From IMG/VR virus record IMGVR_UViG_2636415959_000004: 11,870 nucleotides of DNA; one strand, written 5' to 3'. The notes under the pieces were generated by a model, which was not told the DNA's origin, searched no databases, and saw nothing but the letters and a program-made list of their open reading frames with translations. The position numbers and the translations under genes are program-made. Below are positions 1 to 11,870 of the stretch, one piece after another. Numbering within the stretch: position 1 is the first letter of the stretch; each line of letters starts with the position of its first letter. Source of the stretch: a virus (taxonomy: Duplodnaviria; Heunggongvirae; Uroviricota; Caudoviricetes).

Positions 1-258
1 ATGCAAACCGTTATTTTTGGTCGTTCGGGTTGCCCTTACTGTGTGCGTGCAAAAGATCTGGCTGAGAAATTGAGCAATGAACGCGATGATTTTCAGTATC
101 AGTATGTAGATATTCGTGCGGAAGGGATCACTAAAGAAGATCTACAACAAAAGGCAGGTAAACCCGTAGAAACCGTGCCGCAGATTTTTGTCGATCAGCA
201 ACATATCGGCGGCTATACCGATTTTGCTGCATGGGTGAAAGAAAATCTGGACGCCTGA
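1..258 (+). CDS. grxA: Glutaredoxin 1
   Basis: 85-aa ORF starting at base 1 with ATG; CPYC active-site motif (GCPYCVRAK) and overall sequence as I remember E. coli GrxA; convergent with the next gene as in the grxA-ybjM neighbourhood. Confidence 0.93.
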   Translation: MQTVIFGRSGCPYCVRAKDLAEKLSNERDDFQYQYVDIRAEGITKEDLQQKAGKPVETVPQIFVDQQHIGGYTDFAAWVKENLDA

Positions 259-267
259 TCGTCTGAC

Positions 268-300
268 AAGCCCTCGCGTTGAGGGCTTTACTGATTTTTT
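268..300. terminator. Hairpin between convergent grxA and ybjM, likely shared transcription terminator
   Basis: Inverted repeat AAGCCCTC (268-275) / GAGGGCTT (281-288) with 5-nt loop, followed on the plus strand by TACTGATTTTTT; overlaps the ybjM stop codon (288-290). Confidence 0.5.
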
Positions 301-665
301 CTGTGCTGTGGTTTAAACAAACTACTGATAAATAAGAAACACAGTGCCCCCAGCGCACACCAGAACACCGCGCTTAGTAACCATGCCAGCTCTTGCCAGA
401 ATGAGCGCGTCGGTGAAAAAAACAGCCGCATAATGAGCATCGAACAGGGTGCCGCCAGCATTGCGCCAAACAGAGGTTTCAGGACTTCTCTACGCTGTGA
501 AAAGAAGCTGGCGACTGCTCCAGGAAGAATGAAAAATAGCAAGCCGATTTCAGGATGCCCGGCAGCCCGAAAAGCGCCTTTCATGTGCGTCGCCAGAAAA
601 AGGCACACCACAATGAAGAGGACAAAACAGCAGATTGCCCCCGCCCAACGTTGTTTATGTTTCAC
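288..665 (-). CDS. ybjM: Small inner-membrane protein YbjM (125 aa)
   Basis: 125-aa hydrophobic ORF with GTG start at 665 preceded by a strong AGGAGGA Shine-Dalgarno about 5 nt upstream; size and position (between grxA and ybjL) match E. coli ybjM from memory. Confidence 0.8.
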   Translation of the reverse strand: MKHKQRWAGAICCFVLFIVVCLFLATHMKGAFRAAGHPEIGLLFFILPGAVASFFSQRREVLKPLFGAMLAAPCSMLIMRLFFSPTRSFWQELAWLLSAVFWCALGALCFLFISSLFKPQHRKNQ

Positions 666-934
666 TCGTTCCTCCTGACACTGCGTCTATCGAACACATT
701 TTTCGCCAGTGTGGCGTTCAGTAAGATAAAGCCGCTTCGCATTCCATGCTAATATAGGCCAACGCAATTCATATAGCCGTTGATACCTAATGTGATTACA
801 CTAGTAAAATATATTGTTACTTTACTATCGTTTAGGTGCGCTGAATGAATCTGCGCCCTGAATTCTGGTAAAAAACATTATCGTAAATTACCATTTCTTT
901 CAACAGCTTACTAGTAAACAAGAAGTTAGCCTCC

Positions 935-2620
935 GTGAATATAAACGTCGCCGAATTGTTAAATGGGAATTACATTCTGTTATTATTTGTGGTCCTCGCG
1001 CTTGGGCTATGTCTCGGAAAGTTACGACTTGGTTCGATCCAACTGGGTAATTCCATTGGCGTTTTAGTCGTATCGCTGTTATTAGGCCAACAACATTTCA
1101 GCATTAACACCGATGCGCTTAATCTTGGCTTTATGCTGTTTATTTTCTGCGTCGGGGTCGAAGCCGGACCGAACTTTTTTTCCATTTTTTTTCGCGATGG
1201 GAAAAATTACCTAATGTTAGCACTGGTGATGGTTGGCAGTGCGCTGGTGATCGCCTTAGGGTTAGGTAAGCTGTTTGGCTGGGATATTGGCCTGACGGCC
1301 GGTATGTTAGCAGGCTCTATGACGTCGACACCGGTTCTGGTCGGTGCTGGCGATACACTGCGTCATTCCGGCATGGAAAGCAGGCAGCTCTCACTGGCAC
1401 TGGATAATCTGAGCCTCGGGTATGCCTTAACCTATTTAATCGGTCTGGTGAGTTTGATTGTTGGTGCGCGTTACTTGCCGAAATTGCAGCATCAGGACTT
1501 ACAGACCAGCGCCCAGCAAATCGCCCGCGAACGTGGCCTGGACACTGATGCCAACCGTAAGGTTTATTTACCGGTGATCCGCGCCTATCGCGTCGGCCCG
1601 GAGCTGGTGGCCTGGACCGACGGCAAAAATCTGCGTGAACTGGGTATTTATCGACAAACCGGCTGCTACATTGAACGTATTCGACGTAACGGGATTCTGG
1701 CAAATCCAGACGGTGATGCCGTGCTACAAATGGGCGATGAAATAGCGTTGGTAGGCTATCCCGACGCCCATGCCCGACTCGATCCCAGCTTCCGTAACGG
1801 TAAAGAAGTTTTCGATCGTGACCTTCTCGACATGCGTATCGTCACTGAAGAAGTGGTCGTTAAAAACCATAACGCTGTAGGTAAACGTCTCGCACAACTG
1901 AAGTTGACCGATCACGGTTGCTTCCTTAACCGCGTCATTCGTAGCCAGATTGAGATGCCGATAGATGACAACGTCGTGCTTAACAAAGGTGACGTTTTAC
2001 AAGTCAGCGGTGATGCCCGTCGCGTAAAAACCATCGCCGATCGCATCGGCTTTATCTCGATTCACAGCCAGGTCACTGACCTGCTGGCATTTTGCGCCTT
2101 CTTTGTTATTGGGCTGATGATCGGGATGATCACCTTCCAGTTCAGCACATTCAGTTTCGGCATGGGGAACGCTGCCGGGTTGTTATTCGCCGGAATTATG
2201 CTGGGCTTTATGCGTGCTAACCACCCGACCTTCGGTTACATTCCGCAAGGTGCATTAAGCATGGTGAAAGAGTTCGGCTTGATGGTGTTTATGGCAGGCG
2301 TTGGTCTGAGCGCCGGTAGCGGTATTAATAACGGCCTGGGCGCGATTGGCGGTCAGATGTTGATTGCCGGATTAATTGTCAGTCTTGTGCCCGTGGTTAT
2401 CTGTTTCTTGTTCGGTGCTTATGTATTGCGAATGAACCGCGCACTGTTGTTCGGCGCAATGATGGGCGCACGCACCTGCGCGCCGGCAATGGAGATCATC
2501 AGTGATACAGCTCGCAGTAACATCCCTGCGCTGGGCTATGCGGGCACCTACGCAATCGCCAACGTCCTGCTGACGCTGGCAGGGACAATCATCGTCATGG
2601 TATGGCCAGGATTAGGATAA
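935..2620 (+). CDS. ybjL: Putative AAE-family transporter YbjL (561 aa) with two central RCK_C/TrkA-C-like domains
   Basis: 561-aa ORF with GTG start at 935; hydrophobic N- and C-terminal membrane domains flank a soluble middle region; length and N-terminus [17 protein letters not shown] match YbjL as I recall it; no obvious SD before the GTG. Confidence 0.9.
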
Positions 2621-2732
2621 AACTGAAGTTGCCCTGAAAATGAAATTTTTTTGCACAACCGCAGAACTTTTCCGCAGGGCATCAGTCTTAATTAGTGCCA
2701 CTGCTTTTCTTTGATGTCCCCATTTTGTGGAG

Positions 2733-2775
2733 CCCATCAACCCCGCCATTTCGGTTCAAGGTTGATGGGTTTTTT
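2733..2775 (+). terminator. Rho-independent terminator downstream of ybjL
   Basis: Stem CCCATCAACC (2733-2742) / GGTTGATGGG (2760-2769) followed by TTTTTT (2770-2775); the T-run is present only on the plus strand, so it terminates ybjL rather than ogr. Confidence 0.55.
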
Positions 2776-2855
2776 GTTGCCTGAAATTTATGCCGTTTAA
2801 AATCATGACGTTAGAAGCACTGTTTTTTAACGATGGCGACAAAATGGCGGCAGCG

Positions 2856-3074
2856 TCAAAGAGAGAGCGCCACCTGTCCTGATTTCATTGGATGCGGCTG
2901 AACCGGATTTGACTCTTTTGGCGTTGCAATCGAACGAACAAAAGTTTCATGGGTTACAAAAGTATGGCTGCAGTTAATATTCTGGCACTGGTTGTAACGC
3001 TCTTTGGTCAATGAAGATACCTGAAAACTGCTGCGAGTATGGGCGGCACTTCCACACAGTGGGCAAATCATCAT
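2856..3074 (-). CDS. ogr: Ogr/Delta-family zinc-finger late-gene transcription activator (72 aa)
   Basis: CPLC...CQNINC four-cysteine zinc-finger pattern and overall resemblance to P2 Ogr / 186 B; ATG at 3074 is preceded by GGGGAGA at the right spacing, and the tracked start at 3107 would place that SD inside the coding sequence. Confidence 0.85.
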   Translation of the reverse strand: MMICPLCGSAAHTRSSFQVSSLTKERYNQCQNINCSHTFVTHETFVRSIATPKESNPVQPHPMKSGQVALSL

Positions 3075-3104
3075 TTTTCGAGTTCTCCCCATTTTTGCTA
3101 AATT

Positions 3105-3140
3105 CACAATAATGATACCGCATTATTCCATTTTGCAAAC
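3105..3140 (-). promoter_or_regulatory. Candidate sigma70 promoter for ogr
   Basis: On the minus strand TTGCAA (3138-3133) and TATCAT (3117-3112) with a 15-nt spacer (alternative -10 TCATTA at 18 nt), upstream of the ogr SD, in the D-ogr intergenic region. Spacing is suboptimal; motif match only. Confidence 0.3.
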
Positions 3141-3164
3141 TTAAAAGTTCTCCATTGCGAAGAA

Positions 3165-4265
3165 TCATTCCATTTCGAAATCATCAATCCTCACTTCAAG
3201 CTCCAGACTGGTCGTAAAACCGTTATCCGAGCTGACGGTATGTGTCAGAGTCGTAATGGTCCATTCCGCATCATCTATCGGCTGTTTAAAACCACTGACC
3301 TTCACAGGCATTTCCGTGTAGAGATCTGCCCGCCCTTCTGCCAGTTGTAGCGAGAATGACGCAACGCCGCGTTGCAGGCGTTCCCACTGCATTTTCGCCG
3401 CTCGTTCGGCGTTGCTCCGGTTGGCATAAGTGCGATTAAGTACCAGCACGTTTTCATCCGTACCCACCAGGTAATCGCCCTGCTTCGCTTCCGGCTCTTT
3501 CTTCTGCTTCTTAGTTCTGCGCTTACGCTTCACCGTGGTGCTTTCTTTCTTCGCAGGTTCGCGGGTATGCAACCAGCTGGCAATTACGCCCGTGTAAGCT
3601 CCGCGATCTGCCAGGGTAAATCGGTGACTGTCGCCGTCCTTGCGTGTGATAGTGATCACTGGCAGTGGTTTACCAGTGGCGCTTTTGCCCTGTCCCTGCC
3701 GAATGAATAACAGATTGCCATTTTTCACCGACGCAATAGCACCGTACTGGCGCGCCAGCCGCATCAGAAAACTGCCGTCACTCTCATTAGTCTGGTCTAT
3801 ATGTTCCACGGGCTTATCCGACAGGTCTTTACCCAGTGCCATCTTCAGCTTGTGACGCGCGGCTATTTCCTTCACCACTTCCCCAACTGTGGTCTTGTGC
3901 CACGATTTTTCACGGCGGGTATTCAGCGTTTCCCGAAAATCAGCACTTCGCGCCCGGATAGTCAGGCGGTCCGGTGCGCCAGTGTGTTCAATCTCGTCCA
4001 CTGTGAATGCCCCTTTCGGGAAAAGCGGCTGCCCCTTCCAGCCTAGCGCCAGCGTAATGACCGCACCACGGCGCGGCAGCGCTATTTTTCCATCGGCGTC
4101 ATCCAGCTCCAGATCAAGCTGGTCCGCTTCAAAGCCCCGGTTATCCGTCAGCGTCAGACTCATCAGGCGGTTATCCAGCACAGTGGTGATATCCCTGCCC
4201 TCAATACTGATACTGAATGCCGGAGTTTTGTTGCCTTTGTTAAGCAGCTCAGAGCTGAAATTCAC
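3165..4265 (-). CDS. D: Phage tail protein D (late control gene D family), 366 aa
   Basis: Resembles P2 gpD as I recall it and sits in the conserved T-U-D-ogr order; GTG start at 4265 overlaps the U stop (GTGA), suggesting translational coupling. Confidence 0.88.
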   Translation of the reverse strand: MNFSSELLNKGNKTPAFSISIEGRDITTVLDNRLMSLTLTDNRGFEADQLDLELDDADGKIALPRRGAVITLALGWKGQPLFPKGAFTVDEIEHTGAPDRLTIRARSADFRETLNTRREKSWHKTTVGEVVKEIAARHKLKMALGKDLSDKPVEHIDQTNESDGSFLMRLARQYGAIASVKNGNLLFIRQGQGKSATGKPLPVITITRKDGDSHRFTLADRGAYTGVIASWLHTREPAKKESTTVKRKRRTKKQKKEPEAKQGDYLVGTDENVLVLNRTYANRSNAERAAKMQWERLQRGVASFSLQLAEGRADLYTEMPVKVSGFKQPIDDAEWTITTLTHTVSSDNGFTTSLELEVRIDDFEME

Positions 4266-4747
4266 GACAGCAGCCCTCCCACCGTTTTACTGATATCGCT
4301 TAAGGCAGATGTTGCCGTTTCCTGCAGATTATTCAGTTGCGCACTGAGATCACCGAACATATCGGACAGGGATTCATCCACCCGTTTGAGCGACAGGGTG
4401 AACTCAATCCGGCGCGGCATACCGTCGCGGAAAAACTCCGTTTTAGTCTGATTCAGTCCCTCAATCACATACATGCCGTAAATCGTGCCGCTACCTTCAA
4501 TCAGGGGCCATGCTTTCCCCTGTTCTGCCATCTGCTCCAGAGCCAGCAACGACAGCCTGCCGCCTGTTATCTCCGGCATAAGAACACCGGAAAGCGTCAG
4601 CATGTCGTTGTCCGGTCCCAGAAACTGCGTGGACGGACGACGGTTTACCCGACTGTTTGCCGCATGTCGCCAGCTACGTTGATACTGCAGTTCCTGATAC
4701 GGCACGGTGCGCAGCATAAACACATACAATCCCAGTACCATCATCAT
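4262..4747 (-). CDS. U: Phage tail protein U (161 aa)
   Basis: N-terminus MMMVLGLYVFMLRTVPYQ and length match P2 gpU from memory; ATG start overlaps the T stop (ATGA). Confidence 0.88.
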   Translation of the reverse strand: MMMVLGLYVFMLRTVPYQELQYQRSWRHAANSRVNRRPSTQFLGPDNDMLTLSGVLMPEITGGRLSLLALEQMAEQGKAWPLIEGSGTIYGMYVIEGLNQTKTEFFRDGMPRRIEFTLSLKRVDESLSDMFGDLSAQLNNLQETATSALSDISKTVGGLLS

Positions 4748-7626
4748 GCGTCGTATCCCCCCTGATCGCTGTAGTTACTCCTGGCCTTTGCCTTCATCCT
4801 GCGTTCACGTTCATCAAGCTGGCGTGCCACCTCCCGCGCAATATCCTGCGCACTTTGTCCTGGCTGCGTCTGAATGATGATCTGCGTCGGTGCCTCAATC
4901 CGGTGAACGGGCGGCACAGTGGCTGCACGACTCATCATCGCTTCGCCGCCTTTCGCGGGAAGTGCCAAAGGATGCAACGGTGGAAGCTCTGCAGGCGCGG
5001 CAGCAACGCCCATCATTCCGGCAACAACGGCAGCCAGTGCAGCTGTATTTCTCCGGCTGGTCACATTTACCGGGCCGTTAACAATTTCCGGCCCGTTTTC
5101 ACCGACGATGCCAAACTGCCCGCGCGGGATATAGCCGCCGCTGTCATACATCCCCGCAAAGCCATATCCCCATGACGGAAAACCACCCGATGGCATCATC
5201 ACTTTACCGTCTGCATTCACCGTCGCAGGTTGCTGACGCGTCACTCTTTCCGGCAGTTTCGCCTTTGCAGCCTCTTTACTGACAATGCCGAGTTTCTCCA
5301 GCAACCAGGAAACGCCGGATTTCAGGGAGTCCAGCGGATGCATGACCATATTCAGCCCTTCCGCCAGTGCCTCCCCGAATCGTCGCCCCATTGCCGCTGC
5401 GCTCTGCAGTTCGGCAGAGGTCGACTTAACGGGCGTCAGCAGATCAGTAAACCAGCCCCACAGCGCCTGTACTTTGTCGCCAATCCACTGGAACACTGGC
5501 TTAAGCGGTTCGAATGCTGCACTGACGGGACCTGCCGCCGCTTTGAATCCTTCCACCACGCCACCAAGAAATGCGGTGATGGGTTGCCAGTATTTCCAGA
5601 CAACCAGCGCCACGCCCGCCAGTGCAGTAACCACAAGACCTATCGGACTGAGCAGAGCACCTAACAGACCAGATACGGCATACAGGGCAACGCGCAGCAT
5701 CGCCAGTGGACCAGATGCCAGTATTCGCAGCACCGTGCCTGCGGAGGCCAGTCCACCGCGCAGTACCGCCAGAGGATTCATAAACATCACAGCAACAGCA
5801 CGTAAACCGGATAATCCAGACCGCAAAAGTGCAACCGGCGCACCTGCTACAGTTTTCAGGACATTTCCCGTCAGTGATGCCGTGCGGCGCAAAGACGACA
5901 ACGGCGCAGTAAGTAAACCTGCGGCGTTGCCCGATGAAGCAAGCCCGCGTCGCAGCAGTGCAAGTGGTGCGCCAGCCAACCAGGACAACGCGCTGCTGGT
6001 TCGCGTTACTGCTGCCGTAACGGAAGGTAACGTTTTGATACCCAGCACAGAGAATCCCAGACGGATGACTGCCAGCGGCCCCAGCACAGCAGCCAACACC
6101 ACAGCCAGGGTGCCGAGGCCCACAGTAACAGCAGCCACAACCGCTGCTACTTTCATCAGTGTGCCCGTCAGTTCAGGGTTAGCTTCCACCCAGCAACGCA
6201 ACGCCCCCGTGATGCTTTTCACCGTGTACAGAATATCCATCAGCGGCTGGCGCAGCGTTTCGCCCAGGCTGCTGAAGGTGTTCTGCGCTCCGGTTTTGAC
6301 CAGCAACCACTGCGCAGAAAGTGAGTCCTTGTTAATGTCGGATTCTTTCTGCATCGAACCGAGCGCATCATTGCCCGCTGTCAGTTTTAGCTGGCGCTGC
6401 AGTTCCGGCAGGTTGTTTGCCAGTTTCGCCGCATCATCGCCAAACTCTTTACCAAACAACATGGTCATGGCAGACAGGCGCTTATCCTGCGGCAGTGCAT
6501 TCACCTTCTCCAGTACGCGCTGGATAGTTCCCATCGCATCCTTCGTCATCTGCTTTTCAATCACTTCAGGATTGAGTTTCAGCAGATTCATTCCTTCAAA
6601 GAAACTCTTGCTTTGCATGGTCGCAATGGACAATTCACGCACCATCGCGTTGGCAGCACTGGCAGCGACCTCCGGCGCAGCACCCAGTGTCAGGAAGGTG
6701 GAACCCAGCGCCGCCGCTTTACGATAATCCAGACGATCAGCCACACCGCCCAGGCGTTGCATGACATCAATGATGTCTGCCCCTTTCGACATAGCGTTAT
6801 CATCCAGATAGTTCAGCGCATCACCGAGCTGTTCAATATTGCGGGTTGGTATTTTGTAGAGCTGGGCGATTTTCCCCAGACTTTCTGACAGTTCATCCGC
6901 TGGCAGCTCAAAGGCTGTTGCCGCCTTTGCTGCCGTACTGGCGAAGGCCAGCAGGTCACGTTTCTGGTCCTCCCAGCTGTCGTCAGGGTTTGCCACATTC
7001 ATGCGCGCACCACCTTCAACCAGTGCGGCGAAGTCCACAGCACCGTTTTCCATTGGCAGCTGTTCACTGGCAGCTTTGATGGCATCCTGCATTTCGTAAA
7101 AACGCGCAGTGCGGTTGCCATTATCGTCACGCAGACCATTGACCTGCTTTGCCACACCTTTCATGGCATCTTCCATGCTGGTATAGCTTTTTACCGCCGC
7201 CATCACTGGCGCGCCCATTGCCAGCCCTGCAGCCGTGGTGGTGGCTCCGGCTCCTGCGATGCGATCGCGCACTTCAAGCCGTCTTGAGTATTGTTCTCTG
7301 GCAGCGTTCATCCGTGCCTGTTGTTCACCCAGACGTTTAAGTGCTTTTTGCTGGCCCTCCAGTGCCTGACGAGTTTCTTCGGCATTTTTCTTAAGTTCTC
7401 GCTGGGCACTACTGAGTTGTCTGGTATCAATCCCTGATTCTTTAAGTGCCTGACGTTGTCTCTGGACCGCCCCCAACAAGCCGTTATAGGTCTGCTGAAG
7501 TTCCTGTACCCGGCTGATGGCCCAGCGGGCGTCACGCCACAAATCACCGCTGGCTTCTGCCAGTTCCTCGCCTCGCTTCACACCGGATGCCGTGGCGTCA
7601 TAGTCCTGGTATCGTTCGTTGAGCAT
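4744..7626 (-). CDS. T: Phage tail tape measure protein (about 960 aa from ATG 7626; the tracked ORF uses TTG at 7671)
   Basis: Very long ORF directly upstream of U with coiled-coil-like N-terminal half, a hydrophobic glycine/alanine-rich central region with degenerate tandem repeats (GAPxALLRxGL-like) and a C-terminal GYIPRGQFGIVGENGPEIV motif typical of tape measure proteins. The 5' end is uncertain because an in-frame stop lies 2 codons upstream of the TTG and the region abuts a rearrangement junction. Confidence 0.85.
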   Translation of the reverse strand: MLNERYQDYDATASGVKRGEELAEASGDLWRDARWAISRVQELQQTYNGLLGAVQRQRQALKESGIDTRQLSSAQRELKKNAEETRQALEGQQKALKRLGEQQARMNAAREQYSRRLEVRDRIAGAGATTTAAGLAMGAPVMAAVKSYTSMEDAMKGVAKQVNGLRDDNGNRTARFYEMQDAIKAASEQLPMENGAVDFAALVEGGARMNVANPDDSWEDQKRDLLAFASTAAKAATAFELPADELSESLGKIAQLYKIPTRNIEQLGDALNYLDDNAMSKGADIIDVMQRLGGVADRLDYRKAAALGSTFLTLGAAPEVAASAANAMVRELSIATMQSKSFFEGMNLLKLNPEVIEKQMTKDAMGTIQRVLEKVNALPQDKRLSAMTMLFGKEFGDDAAKLANNLPELQRQLKLTAGNDALGSMQKESDINKDSLSAQWLLVKTGAQNTFSSLGETLRQPLMDILYTVKSITGALRCWVEANPELTGTLMKVAAVVAAVTVGLGTLAVVLAAVLGPLAVIRLGFSVLGIKTLPSVTAAVTRTSSALSWLAGAPLALLRRGLASSGNAAGLLTAPLSSLRRTASLTGNVLKTVAGAPVALLRSGLSGLRAVAVMFMNPLAVLRGGLASAGTVLRILASGPLAMLRVALYAVSGLLGALLSPIGLVVTALAGVALVVWKYWQPITAFLGGVVEGFKAAAGPVSAAFEPLKPVFQWIGDKVQALWGWFTDLLTPVKSTSAELQSAAAMGRRFGEALAEGLNMVMHPLDSLKSGVSWLLEKLGIVSKEAAKAKLPERVTRQQPATVNADGKVMMPSGGFPSWGYGFAGMYDSGGYIPRGQFGIVGENGPEIVNGPVNVTSRRNTAALAAVVAGMMGVAAAPAELPPLHPLALPAKGGEAMMSRAATVPPVHRIEAPTQIIIQTQPGQSAQDIAREVARQLDERERRMKAKARSNYSDQGGYDA

Positions 7627-7772
7627 GGCGCGTGCCCAGCAGTAAACCGCCTTTAACGAACTGGTGGACAAGCTGAGTCATGAAGACAGCCGCCAGGACT
7701 ACCGCCAGCGTGCAACAGGCGGTAACGCCCCCGCTGACACTCTGACCAATTGCTGATGGAGCACAAAACCCG

Positions 7773-8128
7773 ATGAAGAAGAATACCCGCTTTGCTTTTA
7801 ACGCTTACCTGCAGCAGCTGGCGCGTCTGAACGGTGTGGCAGTTGAAGAACTGTCCAGCAAGTTCACCGTGGAGCCGTCTGTGCAGCAGACGCTGGAAGA
7901 CCAGATCCAGCAATCCGCCGCATTCCTGACGCTGATTAACGTCACGCCAGTGACTGAGCAGTCCGGTCAGTTGCTGGGGCTGGGTGTTGGCAGCACCATT
8001 GCCGGAACCACTGATACCACCGCAAAAGAGCGTGAGCCTGTCGATCCGACGCTGATGGTCGATGTGGAATATAAATGTGAGCAGACCAACTTTGACACGG
8101 TGCTGACCTACGCGAAGCTGGACCTGTG
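7773..8128 (+). pseudogene. Truncated 5' fragment of a P2-type major capsid gene (gpN family), about 118 codons
   Basis: First ~118 residues (MKKNTRFAFNAYL...FTVEPSV...YKCEQTNFD...LDL) align with the P2 gpN N-terminus as I remember it; similarity stops near 8128 and the frame then runs antisense to a minus-strand ORF. Orientation is opposite to the tail genes, so the fragment is inverted. GGAG lies 11 nt upstream of the ATG. Confidence 0.72.
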
Positions 8129-8151
8129 TACGAGATCCATTGCATCAGCCA

Positions 8152-8391
8152 TCAGTGGATCTCCTGCGCTTCGTTCTGGATTGCTTCAGCAGTCACACGC
8201 AGCAGTTCTGCCGCTTCGACGTGGTTTAGCTGGCGGGAGGTGATATGACACGCCAGGCTATCGAGGCGAGCAGCCATTGCTTCAGCCCTTGCCCGGCGTT
8301 CTTCCAGACGAGCCTCTGTCAGTAAAAGATTAAGACCTGCATCATCCGGTCCGGTTTTGGTCGTGAGGGTTTCAATATTACGCATAAGCAA
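8152..8391 (-). CDS. Hypothetical small early-region protein (79 aa)
   Basis: ATG at 8391 preceded by AGGAG about 7 nt upstream; charged, probably helical protein; no family recognised; its stop lies about 25 bp from the capsid-fragment junction. Confidence 0.45.
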   Translation of the reverse strand: MLMRNIETLTTKTGPDDAGLNLLLTEARLEERRARAEAMAARLDSLACHITSRQLNHVEAAELLRVTAEAIQNEAQEIH

Positions 8392-8452
8392 TTCTCCTGA
8401 ATTTAGATAAAGGGATGCCCGGCGGGTTTACGCCATTAATTTCATTAGTTGG

Positions 8453-8794
8453 TTAATTCGGCATGGTTAGCCGTCTGGGAAATAAGCTCACCACTGCACG
8501 AAAATGATTCATTGCTTTAATCAACTCCCGCTTTTCGTCAGTGGTCAGCTCATTAATGCTGATGCTATGACGTTCAGCTGGAATTTTTGCCATAAAGAAT
8601 ATGGCAGCCAGTGCCCGTTTATTTTGTTCATTATTGATATCCCGAGGATCACGCATATCTTTAATAAACCGCTCAAGCTCTGACTCAATATTCAAACCAA
8701 AAACTTTCGCCCTTAACTCCGCAATATGATTAAGTCCATTCAGGCGTTCACCGGGTCTTAATGGAACAGTCGCCGCAGCGCCTTCAATAGCCAT
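8453..8794 (-). CDS. Hypothetical early-region protein (113 aa)
   Basis: ATG at 8794 preceded by GGGGGA; its start overlaps the upstream small ORF by 37 nt, a phage-like arrangement; no family recognised; occupies the post-cII position where 186 carries host-takeover genes such as fil and dhr (positional analogy only). Confidence 0.5.
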   Translation of the reverse strand: MAIEGAAATVPLRPGERLNGLNHIAELRAKVFGLNIESELERFIKDMRDPRDINNEQNKRALAAIFFMAKIPAERHSISINELTTDEKRELIKAMNHFRAVVSLFPRRLTMPN

Positions 8795-8958
8795 TTGTTC
8801 CCCCGTTTTTTCGTAGATAGTTCTGCCAGCAATTCATCTTGTGAACGGCACGGATGCCAGCGTTTACCATCCTCACCCATGATCCAGCCGTGACCGTAGT
8901 GCATTGCCGGACTTTGTTTTACTAGCAGCGATGCAAATGATGGTTCTTTCGTCAGCAT
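8758..8958 (-). CDS. Hypothetical small early-region protein (66 aa from ATG 8958; tracked GTG start at 8988 gives 76 aa)
   Basis: ATG at 8958 lies immediately after the cII stop with GGTG 4 nt upstream; basic C-terminus; no family recognised. The start is uncertain. Confidence 0.4.
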   Translation of the reverse strand: MLTKEPSFASLLVKQSPAMHYGHGWIMGEDGKRWHPCRSQDELLAELSTKKRGNKWLLKALRRLFH

Positions 8959-8965
8959 AAGCACC

Positions 8966-9475
8966 TCACAGCAAACCGAATGAAGCACCGAGGCCAGTCA
9001 CGGTATCAACTGCACTCGCCATCGCAGGATTAGCCTGTAAACGGGCCTGCAATGAAACAGCAGCCAGCGCCATCAGTCGTGTAACAGAGTTAATGCTGCT
9101 GATCGCATCACGACGGCCTGCACTGGTTTTTACATCGCCAGAAACCGCACCTGCCGCGACACGCCCTATCTCTGCAGTTGCACTCATGACGTAATGCGGC
9201 AGTTTCTCTTTTGCCACCTCATTAATCGGTACACATGGCAGGCAGTGAATCTGTGCCAGAAAGCCATCTACCAGCGTTGAATCTTCAGTCAGATCGGTAA
9301 GCAACCAGATTTCTGGTGCGGTTAATAAATGAGGTTGAGCTGGGTTCAGCTTGTTCCGCAGAATCTGCACATTCATGCCTGCACGTTCTGCCAGTTGCAC
9401 TAGGTTGTGGCGCAATGCGAATGCACGACAGGCTTCATCAAAATGTGGATGTTTGGAAACTTGGTAATCAAACAT
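8966..9475 (-). CDS. cII: Phage 186-type CII transcriptional activator (169 aa)
   Basis: From ATG 9475 the product starts [20 protein letters not shown]... and is 169 aa, matching the 186 CII (CP76) family in length and in sequence as I recall it; GAGG lies about 9 nt upstream; position right after the apl-like gene is as in 186. The tracked TTG start at 9481 adds two residues. Confidence 0.82.
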
Positions 9476-9507
9476 GGTCAATGCCTCTGATGTATTTCAG
9501 AATCGAA

Positions 9508-9729
9508 CTAATTAAGGTTTAGATTGCATTCTGAAAGCGCATCAACGGTCATGGCTGCTATGTTGATCATCACTTTTTCACGTTTTTTATCTTTGCGCAG
9601 ACGGTGACGGATAAGGCGTCCGTCAGCCAACATGTCATTGATGGTATCGATGGACAGCCCTGTCAGCTCGCTATAGCGTTCAATAGTCACATGAGGCGTG
9701 GTAAGAGTGATTGAAATGTTAGGTCTCAT
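9508..9729 (-). CDS. Putative Apl/Cox-type excisionase and switch regulator (73 aa, helix-turn-helix)
   Basis: Small ORF that is the first gene of the leftward operon, divergent from cI and upstream of cII (the position of 186 apl / P2 cox); HTH-like segment [25 protein letters not shown]; AGGAA about 9 nt upstream of the ATG. The assignment is mainly positional. Confidence 0.55.
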
Positions 9730-9854
9730 GATGCAACATTCCTCGTTTAATGATGATTAATCAGGACGAATACGGATCGTTTGTATTTTGTGAACACCAT
9801 AAACATACGATCGTACAGTGAAATCGTCAAGATAAAAGTTCACTTGGAGTGACC
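9730..9854. promoter_or_regulatory. Immunity switch region between the divergent apl-like and cI genes (expected lytic/lysogenic promoters and operators)
   Basis: 125-bp AT-rich intergenic region between divergent regulators; contains imperfect dyad symmetry around 9770-9815 (GATCG...GTATTTT...AAACATAC...CGATC) that could be repressor operators. No promoter hexamers assigned with confidence. Confidence 0.4.
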
Positions 9855-10424
9855 ATGAATTTGGAGAAAGGCGGACGAGGCGCTATAGAGCGCATGGTAG
9901 AAGCTTATGGATTCAAAACTCGACAGGCGTTGTGCGATCATTTAGGAATCTCTAAAAGTACACTCGCCACACGCTACATGCGTGACTCATTCCCAGCAGA
10001 ATGGGTAATCCAGTGCGCCCTTGAAACGGGCACCTCGCTTAATTGGCTCACAACCGGACATGGTTCAAAGCAAACTTCAGGTAATACAAATACTATGGAA
10101 GTTGCTAAATATGTATTATCTGATGGTGCCTTGCGTGAAGACGGTTTTTATATTTTTGATAAGGGATTTCTACCCTCTACGTTTAAAAAACCTTTTGTCA
10201 TCACAGATAACAATTCTGAATTTATTTGTGATAAAGAATTTGATGATATACGTGACGGTAAATGGGTAATAAGTATTGATGGCGAAATAACAATCCGCGA
10301 CATTACTCGTTTACCCGGTGGAAGAATCTTCGTTGAAGGTGGAAACAGAGCCTTCGAGTGCAAGATAGAAGATGTTGAAATAATTGGGAAAATTATAAGT
10401 TTAACAATTAAGTACGTTAGGTAA
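9855..10424 (+). CDS. cI: Phage 186-type CI repressor (189 aa from ATG 9855; tracked GTG at 9849)
   Basis: N-terminal domain (EAYGFKTRQALCDHLGISKSTLATRYMRDSFPAEW...CALETGTSLNWLTTG) matches the phage CI-repressor HTH family; length matches 186 CI (about 192 aa); GGAG 5 nt upstream of ATG 9855; divergent from apl/cII and upstream of int on the same strand. Confidence 0.82.
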   Translation: MNLEKGGRGAIERMVEAYGFKTRQALCDHLGISKSTLATRYMRDSFPAEWVIQCALETGTSLNWLTTGHGSKQTSGNTNTMEVAKYVLSDGALREDGFYIFDKGFLPSTFKKPFVITDNNSEFICDKEFDDIRDGKWVISIDGEITIRDITRLPGGRIFVEGGNRAFECKIEDVEIIGKIISLTIKYVR

Positions 10425-10439
10425 TACCGGGAGGAAACT

Positions 10440-10631
10440 ATGCTTGGTAAGGTATTTTTTGTGGTTTTATCATGCTCTTTGTTATTAAACCCACTAACTA
10501 CCTATGCTAAAAATTATCCTTGTTCTGGGAAAAAGGGAGGTGTCTCTCACTGTACCTCCGATGGAAAGTTCGTTTGCAATGATGGAACTATTAGTAAATC
10601 AAAAAAAATCTGTACTAAAAACTCGCGATAA
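10440..10631 (+). CDS. Small secreted cysteine-rich protein (63 aa; predicted signal peptide plus ~40-aa mature domain with 4 Cys), possible lysogenic-conversion cargo
   Basis: Strong SD GGGAGG (10429-10434) 5 nt before the ATG; hydrophobic N-terminus with a likely signal-peptidase site after TTYA; mature part is Lys/Gly/Ser-rich with 4 Cys; AT-rich; inserted between cI and int on the same strand. Confidence 0.5.
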
Positions 10632-10764
10632 ATTTTGCTTTTATATCTGCGCCTAATATAACAATGAGCCGCAGGCTAACCGCAAAAGTCACATACTCAC
10701 ATAGCAAAAAATAGCCAACTTCATTATGGCTTCAGTGAGATGTATGGTCGCAGGATTTCATACA

Positions 10765-10793
10765 TTGACACTGGTTATATATACAGTAAAAAT
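10765..10793 (+). promoter_or_regulatory. Candidate promoter upstream of int
   Basis: Perfect -35 TTGACA (10765-10770) followed at 16-17 nt by a weak A/T-rich -10 (TAAAAA / AAAAAT). Motif match only. Confidence 0.25.
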
Positions 10794-10817
10794 GCTCTCT
10801 ATTGGAGGGCATTTTTT

Positions 10818-11870
10818 ATGGCAGTACGAAAACTCACCACAGGAAAATGGCTTTGCGAATGTTACCCCGCCGGACGTAGTGGGCGTCGTGTGCGTAAACA
10901 ATTCGCCACCAAAGGCGAAGCTCTGGCTTTTGAGCGCCATACGATGGAAGAAACCGAAGCAAAGCCCTGGCTGGGAGAATCAGTGGATCGTCGAACACTG
11001 AAAGACGTGGTTGAGCTATGGTTCAAACTACATGGTAAATCTCTAACCGCTGGGCAGCATGTCTATGATAAATTGCTGTTGATGGTTGACGCTCTGGGCA
11101 ATCCCCTTGCAACCGATCTCACCTCTAAAATGTTTGCCCACTATCGAGATAAACGCCTGACAGGTGAGATCTACTTCAGCGAGAAATGGAAGAAAGGAGC
11201 AAGCCCGGTCACCATTAACCTGGAGCAAAGCTATCTAAGTAGTGTTTTTAGCGAACTATCCCGCCTGGGCGAATGGTCGTATCCAAACCCACTGGAGAAC
11301 ATGCGAAAATTCACCATCGCAGAAAAAGAGATGGCATGGCTTACCCATGAGCAGATTGTTGAACTGCTGGCTGATTGCAAACGTCAGGACCCAATTCTGG
11401 CACTGGTAGTCAAGATATGCTTAAGCACAGGCGCACGCTGGCGAGAAGCAATAAACCTTACCCGATCACAGGTGACTAAATACCGAATTACCTTTGTAAG
11501 AACGAAGGGGAAGAAAAACAGAAGCATCCCTATCAGTAAAGAGCTTTATGAAGAGATCATGGCGCTTGATGGGTTCAATTTCTTCACAGACTGCTATTTT
11601 CAATTTTTATCCGTGATGGAAAAAACGTCAATCGTGCTCCCTCGCGGTCAACTGACACACGTTCTGCGCCATACGTTTGCGGCGCATTTCATGATGTCGG
11701 GTGGAAATATCCTTGCTTTGCAAAAAATCCTCGGACATCACGATATAAAAATGACTATGCGTTACGCTCATCTGGCACCGGATCATCTGGAAACGGCGCT
11801 CCGTTTCAATCCTCTGGCAACGCTGCCAAGTGGCGACAAAGTGGCGGCAGCGGTTGGCATTACCCCGTAA
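10818..11870 (+). CDS. int: Tyrosine recombinase, P2/186-type phage integrase (350 aa from ATG 10818)
   Basis: Resembles P2 Int as I recall it; catalytic signatures HxxR (LRHTFAAHF) and C-terminal tyrosine (MTMRYAHLAP); GGAGGG about 8 nt upstream of ATG 10818, so the tracked start at 10740 is a spurious 5' extension; the stop codon is the last 3 bases of the window. Confidence 0.9.
   Translation: MAVRKLTTGKWLCECYPAGRSGRRVRKQFATKGEALAFERHTMEETEAKPWLGESVDRRTLKDVVELWFKLHGKSLTAGQHVYDKLLLMVDALGNPLATDLTSKMFAHYRDKRLTGEIYFSEKWKKGASPVTINLEQSYLSSVFSELSRLGEWSYPNPLENMRKFTIAEKEMAWLTHEQIVELLADCKRQDPILALVVKICLSTGARWREAINLTRSQVTKYRITFVRTKGKKNRSIPISKELYEEIMALDGFNFFTDCYFQFLSVMEKTSIVLPRGQLTHVLRHTFAAHFMMSGGNILALQKILGHHDIKMTMRYAHLAPDHLETALRFNPLATLPSGDKVAAAVGITP

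Follow-up and report, generated by a model that had tools for sequence, protein, structure and literature searches.

The rybB gene is listed as an insertion site of P2-like prophages in Escherichia coli strains W, B, and Crooks (Archer et al., 2011; PMC3032704), and the K-12 ogr-D' remnant at cyaR is a listed example of a cryptic or defective prophage (PMC3032704). PhiECO1, PhiECO2, and PhiSEN1 have been proposed to form a separate immunity class, whose members have CI repressors more than 96% identical to each other and a 125-nt cI-apl spacer that is 98-100% identical (Nilsson et al., 2011; PMC3448106). The DNA analyzed here (11,870 nucleotides, called the window) contains a P2/186-like E. 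coli prophage of a well-known type, seated at the rybB small-RNA gene, and its biology is ordinary and already known. Positions 8127-11870 most likely represent the early/lysogeny control region, free of mutation, of a 186-type prophage of the Fels-2 group and the PhiECO1/PhiECO2 class, inserted at the rybB 3' end, from which about 25 of about 34 kb were removed by multi-step deletion and inversion and from which no phage can be produced.

The insertion lies between ybjL and rcdA, at the 3' end of rybB, where the terminator end of the small RNA gene is the phage attachment target and was rebuilt intact (Table 1). A single att core, the ogr-proximal one, falls within the window; its int-proximal partner lies outside, some 75-100 bp beyond position 11870, in a 100%-identical contig of the source genome (L009). 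The cores match perfectly over 14 bp and at 24 of 27 positions across the extended core. Mapping against a full-length prophage bore out the earlier note's description of a defective prophage. The replication, SOS operon, packaging, head, lysis, baseplate, fibre, sheath, and tube gene sets are gone, and three rearrangement junctions join what is left into a scrambled remnant of roughly 9 kb. The head-completion gene fragment overlaps its neighbors by 11 bp (7502-7512) and 17 bp (7640-7656), the tape-measure gene T begins at 15358 in the full-length prophage L003, and the inverted O/N fragment gives rise to a chimeric 156-aa ORF at 7773-8243. Deletion and scrambling are the ordinary route of prophage decay. 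The three junctions were found in none of the 5426 complete E. coli genomes searched and are common in draft and metagenome assemblies, where the chimeric ORF of this remnant lineage is present in 446 collection blocks. The lineage has also survived a second deletion (D-U-T') that left the lysogeny module undamaged.

Table 1. Features of the prophage remnant and its host junction, with positions in the window.
Feature	Position	Strand	Evidence and details
rybB small RNA gene (host)	2700-2778	+	Rfam RF00110, 105.3 bits, full length; K-12 copy scores equal
ogr-proximal att core	2764-2790	.	ATGGGTTTTTTGTT (14 bp perfect) and GCCTGAAATTTAT (phage-type extension); compared with the int-proximal junction in L001/L009 and the empty K-12 site
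Tandem Int arm-type-like sites	2831-2852	-	TGTCGCCATCG / TGCCGCCATTT; match the 186-record arm consensus YAYCGCCAYTY at 8/11 and 10/11
ogr/B-type late activator, intact, 72 aa	2856-3074	-	PF04606; 54% identical to 186 B
Tail genes D (3165-4265), U (4262-4747), and tape-measure T without about the first 103 codons	3165-7512	-	Collinear with L003 23178-15667
Head-completion gene L fragment, 155 bp	7502-7656	-	blastn vs. L003 3704-3550
Inverted fragment: scaffold O 3' end and first ~118 codons of capsid N	7640-8128	+	blastn vs. L003 1330-1818, opposite orientation; PF05125 positions 1-111 of 327
Distal early genes	8152-8958	-	DUF2732 8152-8385 (PF10809), DUF5347 8453-8794 (PF17282), fil 8758-8958 (PF10893)
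cII, lysogeny-establishment activator, 169 aa	8966-9475	-	PF06892 E=3e-42; 69% identical to 186 CII, aligned 1-169
Predicted CII-binding half-sites (pE activator site)	9449-9475	-	ATGTTTG-N13-CAAACAT at cII 5' end; half-sites and spacing as in the annotated 186 CII site
Cox/Apl-like gene, 73 aa, first of lytic operon	9508-9729	-	phrog_575 E=6e-31; predicted excision directionality factor and switch repressor
Candidate lysogenic promoter pL	9711-9739	+	-35 TTGAAA 9711-9716, 17-nt spacer, -10 CAACAT 9734-9739
cI-apl switch spacer, 125 nt	9730-9854	.	38-bp imperfect palindrome 9775-9812; 186 A-type-like site TTCACTTGGAGTGAC 9839-9853; lineage-private T at 9814
Candidate lytic promoter pR	9802-9830	-	-35 TTGACG 9830-9825, 17-nt spacer, -10 TATGTT 9807-9802; promoter scan 9/12
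cI immunity repressor, 189 aa, 186 type	9855-10424	+	PF07022 E=3e-33; PF16452 E=2e-28; PDB 2FJR E=3e-31
Inverted pair of 12-mer TGTATTWYSTGA, candidate CI sites (FL-like)	10077-10123		10077-10088 (-) and 10112-10123 (+); inside cI, ~300 bp from pR
63-aa secreted YdcA-family ORF in cI-int interval (cargo gene)	10440-10631	+	phrog_6000 E=5e-34; PF27300; RefSeq name 'YdcA family protein'
int, tyrosine integrase, 350 aa	10818-11870	+	PF24624 and PF00589; 56% identical to 186 Int; window ends at stop codon
Second tandem pair of Int arm-type-like sites	11828-11849	-	TGTCGCCACTT / TGCCGCCACTT; in int 3' end

The block at 8127-11870 contains genes for DUF2732, DUF5347, fil (a cell-division inhibitor gene), cII, a Cox/Apl-like protein, cI, a small YdcA-like protein, and int, and all eight are uninterrupted. 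Each of the eight proteins is identical to its counterpart in the full-length prophage of E. coli 95-3322, from which the DNA differs over 3744 bp by two SNPs, one synonymous and one intergenic (99.95% identity). ORF lengths agree across five independent assemblies. The description of cII, cI, and int as full length thus holds against both the intact prophage and the five assemblies, and the HTH and catalytic motifs read from the sequence are also there. CI contains the HTH domain PF07022, and Int retains the catalytic residues R207, the Lys within TKGKK (229-233), H281, R284, H307, and Y316, within a PF00589 domain (E=1e-21) that accompanies an N-terminal arm-binding domain (PF24624, E=3e-32). 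Of the ATG codons in the ORF, the one at 10818, not the initial one at 10740, was taken as the int start; residue 1 then aligns with residue 1 of 186 Int. Judged by proteins identical to those of intact relatives, the remnant is young, and the lysogeny module is probably intact because decay is recent.

The switch was earlier called divergent. This is correct for the genes, but the best promoter candidates point toward each other, with a transcript overlap that we estimate at roughly 50 bp, so the promoters are most likely face-to-face as are pR and pL of 186. The pL candidate stands where the mapped pL of 186 does in relation to the apl start, and its block is invariant in heteroimmune relatives; a consensus promoter scan did not list it, and its -10 matches 3 of 6 positions. 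The inverted TGTATTWYSTGA pair within cI parallels the 186 FL site in location, and a third exact copy is present at 9782-9793 (+). Besides these three exact copies of the 12-mer, a motif derived post hoc, the window contains no copy with fewer than two mismatches. A possible FR-like site at 9491 (TCTGATGTATTTCAGA) was ambiguous, being unlike the 12-mer and overlapping the likely pE -10, and was not retained. Searches for 186 A-type operators gave counts not above chance, with the exception of one site (9839-9853, one mismatch), and 186 B-type pR operators were absent. Among k-mers that the switch spacer has in common with other parts of the prophage, none was a convincing operator upstream of ogr, where 186 CI binds.

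The predicted CII protein belongs to the PF06892 family, and inverted half-sites two helical turns apart lie at the 5' end of its own gene, features that point to an activator of the 186 CII (CP76) type. The half-sites are invariant in two heteroimmune relatives. The 73-aa product of the first lytic-operon gene is a putative Cox/Apl family member, a small HTH protein assigned by its position and by phrog_575, which 186 Apl also matches (E=3e-9). The protein is 37% identical to HP2 Cox (E=7e-4), and had no Pfam match and no BLAST match to 186 Apl. A PDB sequence search with it returned only a designed repeat protein, and a single-sequence AlphaFold model (mean pLDDT 51.7) was too poor for a fold search. 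Excisionase-repressors of the Cox/Apl type have binding-site arrays both in the interval separating the switch promoters and beside the att core. In L009 the stretch from the int stop to the att core contains two direct repeats, TAACTTATTGTTTT, and the switch spacer contains no clear array that matches them.

Neither a Tum homologue (tblastn) nor a CTGT-N8-ACAG LexA box was detected in the window, consistent with the earlier failure to see a tum-like antirepressor there. In full-length relatives, the replication gene is followed by a LexA box, a 62-aa ORF, and a DinI/Tum-like ORF, all within the segment deleted here; in the relative L002 the LexA box is at 9317 and the DinI/Tum-like ORF at 9376-9808. 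The deletion thus took the LexA-box/Tum-like operon with it, and SOS control of the switch was probably lost as a result, as had been suspected; DNA damage would then be unable to induce the remnant. The suggestion that int and the apl/cox-like gene could still excise the remnant stands in part. The recombination hardware appears complete, comprising int, the tandem arm-type-like pair that recurs on both arms (2831-2852 and 11828-11849), and, in the source genome, both att cores, but excision needs the Cox/Apl-like protein, whose expression would depend on the lytic promoter, which is repressed. As no SOS trigger is left, excision would be expected only rarely unless the genes are artificially expressed.

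The CI repressor has the domain organization of 186 CI. Residues 11-74 match positions 1-64 of the 65-position HTH profile PF07022 (E=2.8e-33), the C-terminal part matches the oligomerization domain of the 186 CI fold (PF16452, E=2e-28), and residues 10-183 match the 186 CI structure 2FJR (E=3e-31; 2FKD, E=3e-14). Repressors of the 186 type are inactivated by a Tum antirepressor and not by RecA-stimulated self-cleavage; the Peptidase_S24 score of the present CI (16.7 bits) was under the 23.3-bit cutoff. CI is 97-100% identical to the repressors of E. coli strains C (96.8%), HL15, LR-27, and 95-3322, with those of LR-27 and 95-3322 identical to it, and the strain 'C' genome stands beside ATCC 8739 among the matches. 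The spacer at 9730-9854 is 125 nt long and has 1-3 differences from those of four E. coli relatives (97.6-99.2% identity). Compared by the published criteria with these E. coli relatives, the predicted repressor and spacer fit the PhiECO1/PhiECO2/PhiSEN1 immunity class. The immunity region was found in 502 of 5426 complete E. coli genomes (about 9%).

By analogy with 186, CI made from pL would bind operators over the facing pR and probably also the distal pair inside cI, which would silence the apl/cox-like gene, cII, fil, and downstream genes and also relieve interference on pL. Incoming phages with matching operators would be repressed by this CI too, giving class-specific superinfection immunity. 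With the Tum-like operon in the deleted segment, DNA damage would no longer flip the switch. Int, the arm sites, and both att cores appear intact, and with the excision factor available only from a repressed pR, the remnant would be effectively locked unless the factor was supplied. Deletions of cI that leave harmful CI-repressed genes in place should be counter-selected.

The earlier note had proposed that a repressor kept in functional form could protect the host against incoming 186-like phages, a homoimmunity that, read broadly, would extend to 186 itself. The repressor fold and domain organization do match those of 186 CI, the recognition-helix regions are similar, and one 186 A-type-like site (TTCAC-N5-GTGAC) adjoins pR. 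That site is at chance level, however, there is no counterpart of the 186 pR B-type operators, and PhiECO1, PhiECO2, and PhiSEN1 were given their own proposed immunity class by Nilsson et al. (2011). CI is only 32% identical to 186 CI (54% to that of the best isolated phage), so any immunity would cover the PhiECO1-type class and not 186. Neither the near-identical CI nor the shared pR operators of the phage 186 immunity class were found, and 186 itself should be heteroimmune. Homoimmunity as broad as first proposed is thus very unlikely, and a candidate class-specific immunity remains of it. The module could also merely look intact, with a C-to-T substitution at 9814, in the pR spacer and private to the remnant lineage, altering promoter or operator function. 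C is present there in each of the five relatives examined, none of 5426 complete genomes matches the surrounding 61 bp exactly (494 are one position off), and the T creates a perfect palindrome, TACGATCGTA, that contains GATC. Position 9814 lies within the 17-nt spacer and outside both hexamers of the pR candidate, however, and one fixed neutral SNP is expected in a clonal lineage. Positions 9815, 9818, and 9827 also vary among relatives, suggesting weak constraint, and because adjacent spacer positions vary we rejected a functional switch mutation as the main reading and regard it as improbable.

A young, unmutated control region in a decaying prophage, the reading preferred here, can be set beside the proposal that selection has kept the module as a domesticated immunity cassette, as an addiction-like constraint in which loss of CI derepresses the pR operon including Fil and cI-null variants are purged, or as both. 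In its favor, four independently derived remnants at the locus (three besides the present one) all keep apl-cI-orf63-int, the remnant lineage is common in assemblies, as the spread of its chimeric ORF indicates, and its second deletion spared the module. Also, fil is kept downstream of pR, and the frequency of the immunity region among complete genomes implies that related phages are common challengers. Against it, two SNPs relative to an intact prophage leave too little time for decay to reveal selection, and internal deletions retain both prophage ends for purely geometric reasons. Moreover, cII is truncated or fused in two other remnants, so that the module is only partly kept consistently. 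Selection is a tentative explanation toward which we do not lean. The fuller version, in which the remnant is not neutral debris but a domesticated, SOS-blind immunity cassette whose CI, along with Int and att, was selected in a widespread E. coli lineage to exclude the very common PhiECO1-class phages and to hold back toxic early genes (fil), and in which T9814 might tune the locked switch, is unlikely.

The significance of the recent decay of an ordinary prophage beyond annotation is small. The remnant is a clean case of P2/186-like decay with repressor, integrase, and att sites intact, its three unique junctions and T9814 are usable as a lineage marker, and related phages that enter the cell can recombine with it. 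Expression of CI, if it occurs, would make the host resistant to one common class of temperate phages.

Gene order and orientation are those of the coliphage 186 switch (NC_001317). CI shares both Pfam domains with its 186 counterpart, CII, Int, and Fil are 69, 56, and 82% identical to theirs (Fil over 50 aa), the CII half-sites and their spacing are identical, and the pL candidate is equally placed. Sites resembling the 186 Int arm-type consensus occur on both arms here too, and full-length relatives likewise have a LexA-controlled Tum/DinI-like operon after the replication gene. In contrast to 186, the operator sequences differ along with CI, as would be expected of heteroimmune phages, and the Apl counterpart is of the HP1/HP2-Cox type, without BLAST similarity to 186 Apl. 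The attB is the rybB sRNA 3' end, whereas 186 uses a tRNA-Ile gene, the YdcA-like ORF separates cI from int, whereas the genes there overlap in 186, and DUF5347 occupies the place of dhr. Of the 186 plan, the remnant has lost the Tum operon, the genes for replication, and most of the late genes by deletion. The rybB site and the 125-nt cI-apl spacer are held in common with PhiECO1, PhiECO2 (ATCC 8739, 'Rybb*Cr'), PhiSEN1, Rybb*W, and Rybb*B (PMC3448106, PMC3032704). Full-length copies in RefSeq genomes have a module 99.95% identical to this one, which differs from them in being part of a scrambled remnant with the private SNP at 9814. Like other cryptic prophages that keep repressor and integrase, the remnant has internal deletions that leave the ends, and its regulatory and recombination genes have outlasted those for structure and replication; nothing sets it apart from cryptic prophages generally except its youth, as seen in proteins identical to those of intact relatives.

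The lysogeny module in the right-hand part of the window is uninterrupted, and its products match the expected families strongly (see table). CI residues 10-183 match the sequence of the coliphage 186 CI crystal structure (2FJR; E=3e-31), and the integrase contains R207, the lysine in TKGKK (229-233), H281, R284, H307 and Y316. Int aligns with 186 Int from residue 1, so the true start is ATG 10818 and not the first ATG of the open reading frame (10740). On sequence grounds, the best evidence for intactness is the comparison with relatives. The block 8127-11870 differs from the same block of the full-length prophage of Escherichia coli 95-3322 at 2 of 3744 positions, one synonymous in fil (8923) and one intergenic (9814), and all eight module proteins are identical to their counterparts. 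The same open reading frames were found in five independent assemblies, which, with this near-identity, answers the concern about frameshifts. The intact module described in the earlier note was thus confirmed as an observation; its interpretation was supported in part, the breadth of immunity and the arrangement of the promoters requiring correction. The slot between cI and int carries variable cargo, the YdcA-family ORF here and a 558-aa "chromosome segregation ATPase" in phage vB_EcoM-813R9 (L012, 4793-6469). A strong promoter-like site (TTGACA, 17-nt spacer, AAAAAT; 10/12 matches) lies at 10765-10793 directly 5' of the int start, and int may be transcribed from it as well as by read-through from cI.

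Features of the prophage remnant and its insertion site (window coordinates)
Feature	Position	Strand or direction	Details
Collinear block	1-7512		host genes, ogr, D, U, tape-measure gene T minus ~103 N-terminal codons
rybB small-RNA gene	2700-2778		Rfam RF00110, 105 bits, full length
Tandem arm-type-like sites	2831-2852; 11828-11849 (int 3' end)	same orientation	TGTCGCCAYYK/TGCCGCCAYTT
Piece of head-completion gene L	7502-7656		155 bp
Inverted piece	7640-8128		scaffold 3' end and first ~118 capsid codons
Early region	8127 onward		starts at DUF2732
cII	8966-9475	-	169 aa; PF06892, E=3e-42
CII half-sites	start of cII		ATGTTTG-N13-CAAACAT, identical to half-sites annotated in 186
Cox/Apl-like gene	9508-9729	-	73 aa; phrog_575, E=6e-31
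Candidate pL	9711-9739	rightward	-35 TTGAAA 9711-9716, 17-nt spacer, -10 CAACAT 9734-9739
Candidate operator	9775-9812		38-bp imperfect palindrome spanning pR -10/+1
Candidate pR analogue	9830-9802	leftward	adjoins cI; -35 TTGACG 9830-9825, -10 TATGTT 9807-9802; consensus scan
Candidate operator			186 A-type-like site TTCACTTGGAGTGAC, abuts pR -35
cI	9855-10424	+	189 aa; PF07022, E=3e-33; PF16452, E=2e-28
YdcA-family ORF	10440-10631	+	63 aa; signal peptide
int	10818-11870	+	350 aa; PF24624 and PF00589

The window begins in the E. coli chromosome (grxA, ybjM, ybjL), and several E. coli genomes match this host part at 100% identity. The K-12 arrangement is ybjL-rybB-rcdA with nothing else in between; here a P2/186-like prophage follows rybB, and the last base of the window is that of the int stop codon. 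Contig JPKI01000003.1 (L009) is 100% identical across the whole window and extends into rcdA. The prophage attB is the 3' terminator end of rybB (within 2700-2790), the att core overlapping the terminator tail. ATGGGTTTTTTGTT is a perfect repeat at 2764-2777 and ~75-100 bp past the window end in L009; the extended core copies match at 24 of 27 positions and differ at three in the source genome. The Rfam match shows that rybB is reconstituted intact after insertion. In 95-3322 the phage-type extension sits on the int-proximal core copy, suggesting that crossover or repair had more than one outcome. Among relatives at the rybB site, some encode a shorter integrase of 338-343 aa and carry one more small hypothetical ORF, placed between int and rcdA (strain "C" genome L011, 18160-18492; L014, 8739-9008; L016, 13181-13450), so that neither the C-terminus of int nor the att arm is constant from one prophage here to the next.

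Mapping against the ~34-kb prophage of 95-3322 bore out the view that the prophage is defective. The gene L piece and the inverted scaffold/capsid piece, joined with overlaps of 11, 17 and 2 bp, sit between what is left of tape-measure gene T and DUF2732, giving a chimeric 156-aa capsid ORF (7773-8243). By this mapping, the remnant is the product of more than one event and is more complex than a single deletion. The genes lost include TraR, dam, the replication endonuclease, the SOS operon and a defence-gene hotspot as well as portal, terminase, most head genes, lysis, baseplate, fibres, sheath and tube. That hotspot, flanked by the Tum/DinI operon and portal, holds defence-type genes that differ among full-length and other relatives, such as an AIPR protein in 95-3322 (L002, 9922-12617) and a retron St85 system in strain "C" (L011, 7243-9291). 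The remnant junctions were found in 0 of 5426 complete E. coli genomes; the assembly collection has 446 blocks with the chimeric capsid ORF. Some members of the lineage (L006 and L010) have a further deletion (equivalent to 3280-5229) that takes the whole of U together with most of D and some of T, and their lysogeny module is still 100% identical. A metagenome copy (L008) has 113 SNPs, grouped in DUF5347-fil-cII (equivalent to 8630-9233) and in the tail genes (3500-7500), and none in cI-int, as would be expected from patchy recombination between this remnant and a related phage.

Recency is the simplest reason for the intact module, because it is just two substitutions away from an intact prophage. 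At the rybB site, three further remnants of independent origin (LR-27, HL15 and WCHEC050613, the last IS1-mediated) also keep apl-cI-orf63-int, and cII is damaged in two of them. Such retention fits the geometry of internal deletions; it fits equally well selection against deletions that take out the repressor and leave behind harmful genes under CI control, here at least fil.

Neither a Tum homologue nor a LexA box was found in the window, which bears out the suspected loss of the SOS trigger. Immediately beyond its replication gene, the full-length relative has a canonical LexA box (CTGTAAATATAAACAG), after which come a 62-aa ORF and a DinI-like ORF; the DinI-like product is 41% identical to Tum of 186 over the C-terminal half of Tum. 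This region lies entirely within the segment deleted here. The proposal that the remnant could still excise holds in principle. The tandem sites match the arm consensus annotated for 186 Int at 8-10 of 11 positions, and the excision hardware is complete in the source genome, with just one att core within the window. The excision factor would be expressed from pR, so with the trigger lost excision should also be rare.

The switch had been described as divergent, which fits the genes but probably not the promoters. The leftward promoter beside cI is a candidate pR analogue, and candidate pL is placed exactly as the mapped 186 pL, with the -35 in the first apl codons and the -10 just upstream of the apl ATG; its block is invariant in two heteroimmune relatives. 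The two are probably face-to-face with ~50 bp of overlap, as in 186. The 12-mer TGTATTWYSTGA occurs exactly three times in the window, at 9782 (at pR), 10077-10088 and 10112-10123. The latter two form an inverted pair inside cI, ~300 bp from pR, recalling the 186 FL site; as a candidate operator the 12-mer is a lead and not proof, since it was from these three copies that the motif was derived. T9814 is private to the remnant lineage (0 of 502 complete genomes with the switch; C in every relative examined), and the base differs from that of the window in 494 complete genomes. It falls in the spacer of candidate pR beside other polymorphic positions and for that reason is most likely neutral. 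The perfect palindrome TACGATCGTA, which T9814 creates, includes one GATC site; another is at 9775-9778, and full-length relatives carry their own Dam methylase gene.

Protein comparisons indicate that the phage is of the 186 type and not the P2 type, with identities to 186 of 69% for CII, 56% for Int, 82% for Fil (over 50 aa), 54% for the ogr/B activator and 46% for DUF2732. The Cox/Apl-like protein had no BLAST match to 186 Apl, shares family phrog_575 with it and has HP1/HP2-type Cox proteins as its nearest characterised relatives. Both prophage type and insertion site are already documented, "rybB ncRNA" being listed as the locus where the P2-like prophages of E. coli W, B and Crooks are inserted (Archer et al., PMC3032704), and RefSeq routinely annotates entries identical to the module proteins. 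Among 5426 complete E. coli genomes, 502 carry the switch sequence; for the isolated phages in the collection, by contrast, CI identity to the window protein does not exceed 54%. PhiECO1 (HS), PhiECO2 (ATCC 8739), PhiECO3 (CFT073) and PhiSEN1 were grouped by their common integration site, and PhiECO1, PhiECO2 and PhiSEN1 were proposed as a single CI immunity class whose cI-apl spacer is 125 nt long (Nilsson et al., PMC3448106). The spacer here (9730-9854) is also 125 nt, and four E. coli relatives have CI proteins with 96.8-100% identity to the one here, against just 32% for 186 CI. The homoimmunity against 186-like phages proposed in the earlier note should therefore, if present, be specific to this class and not extend to 186 itself.
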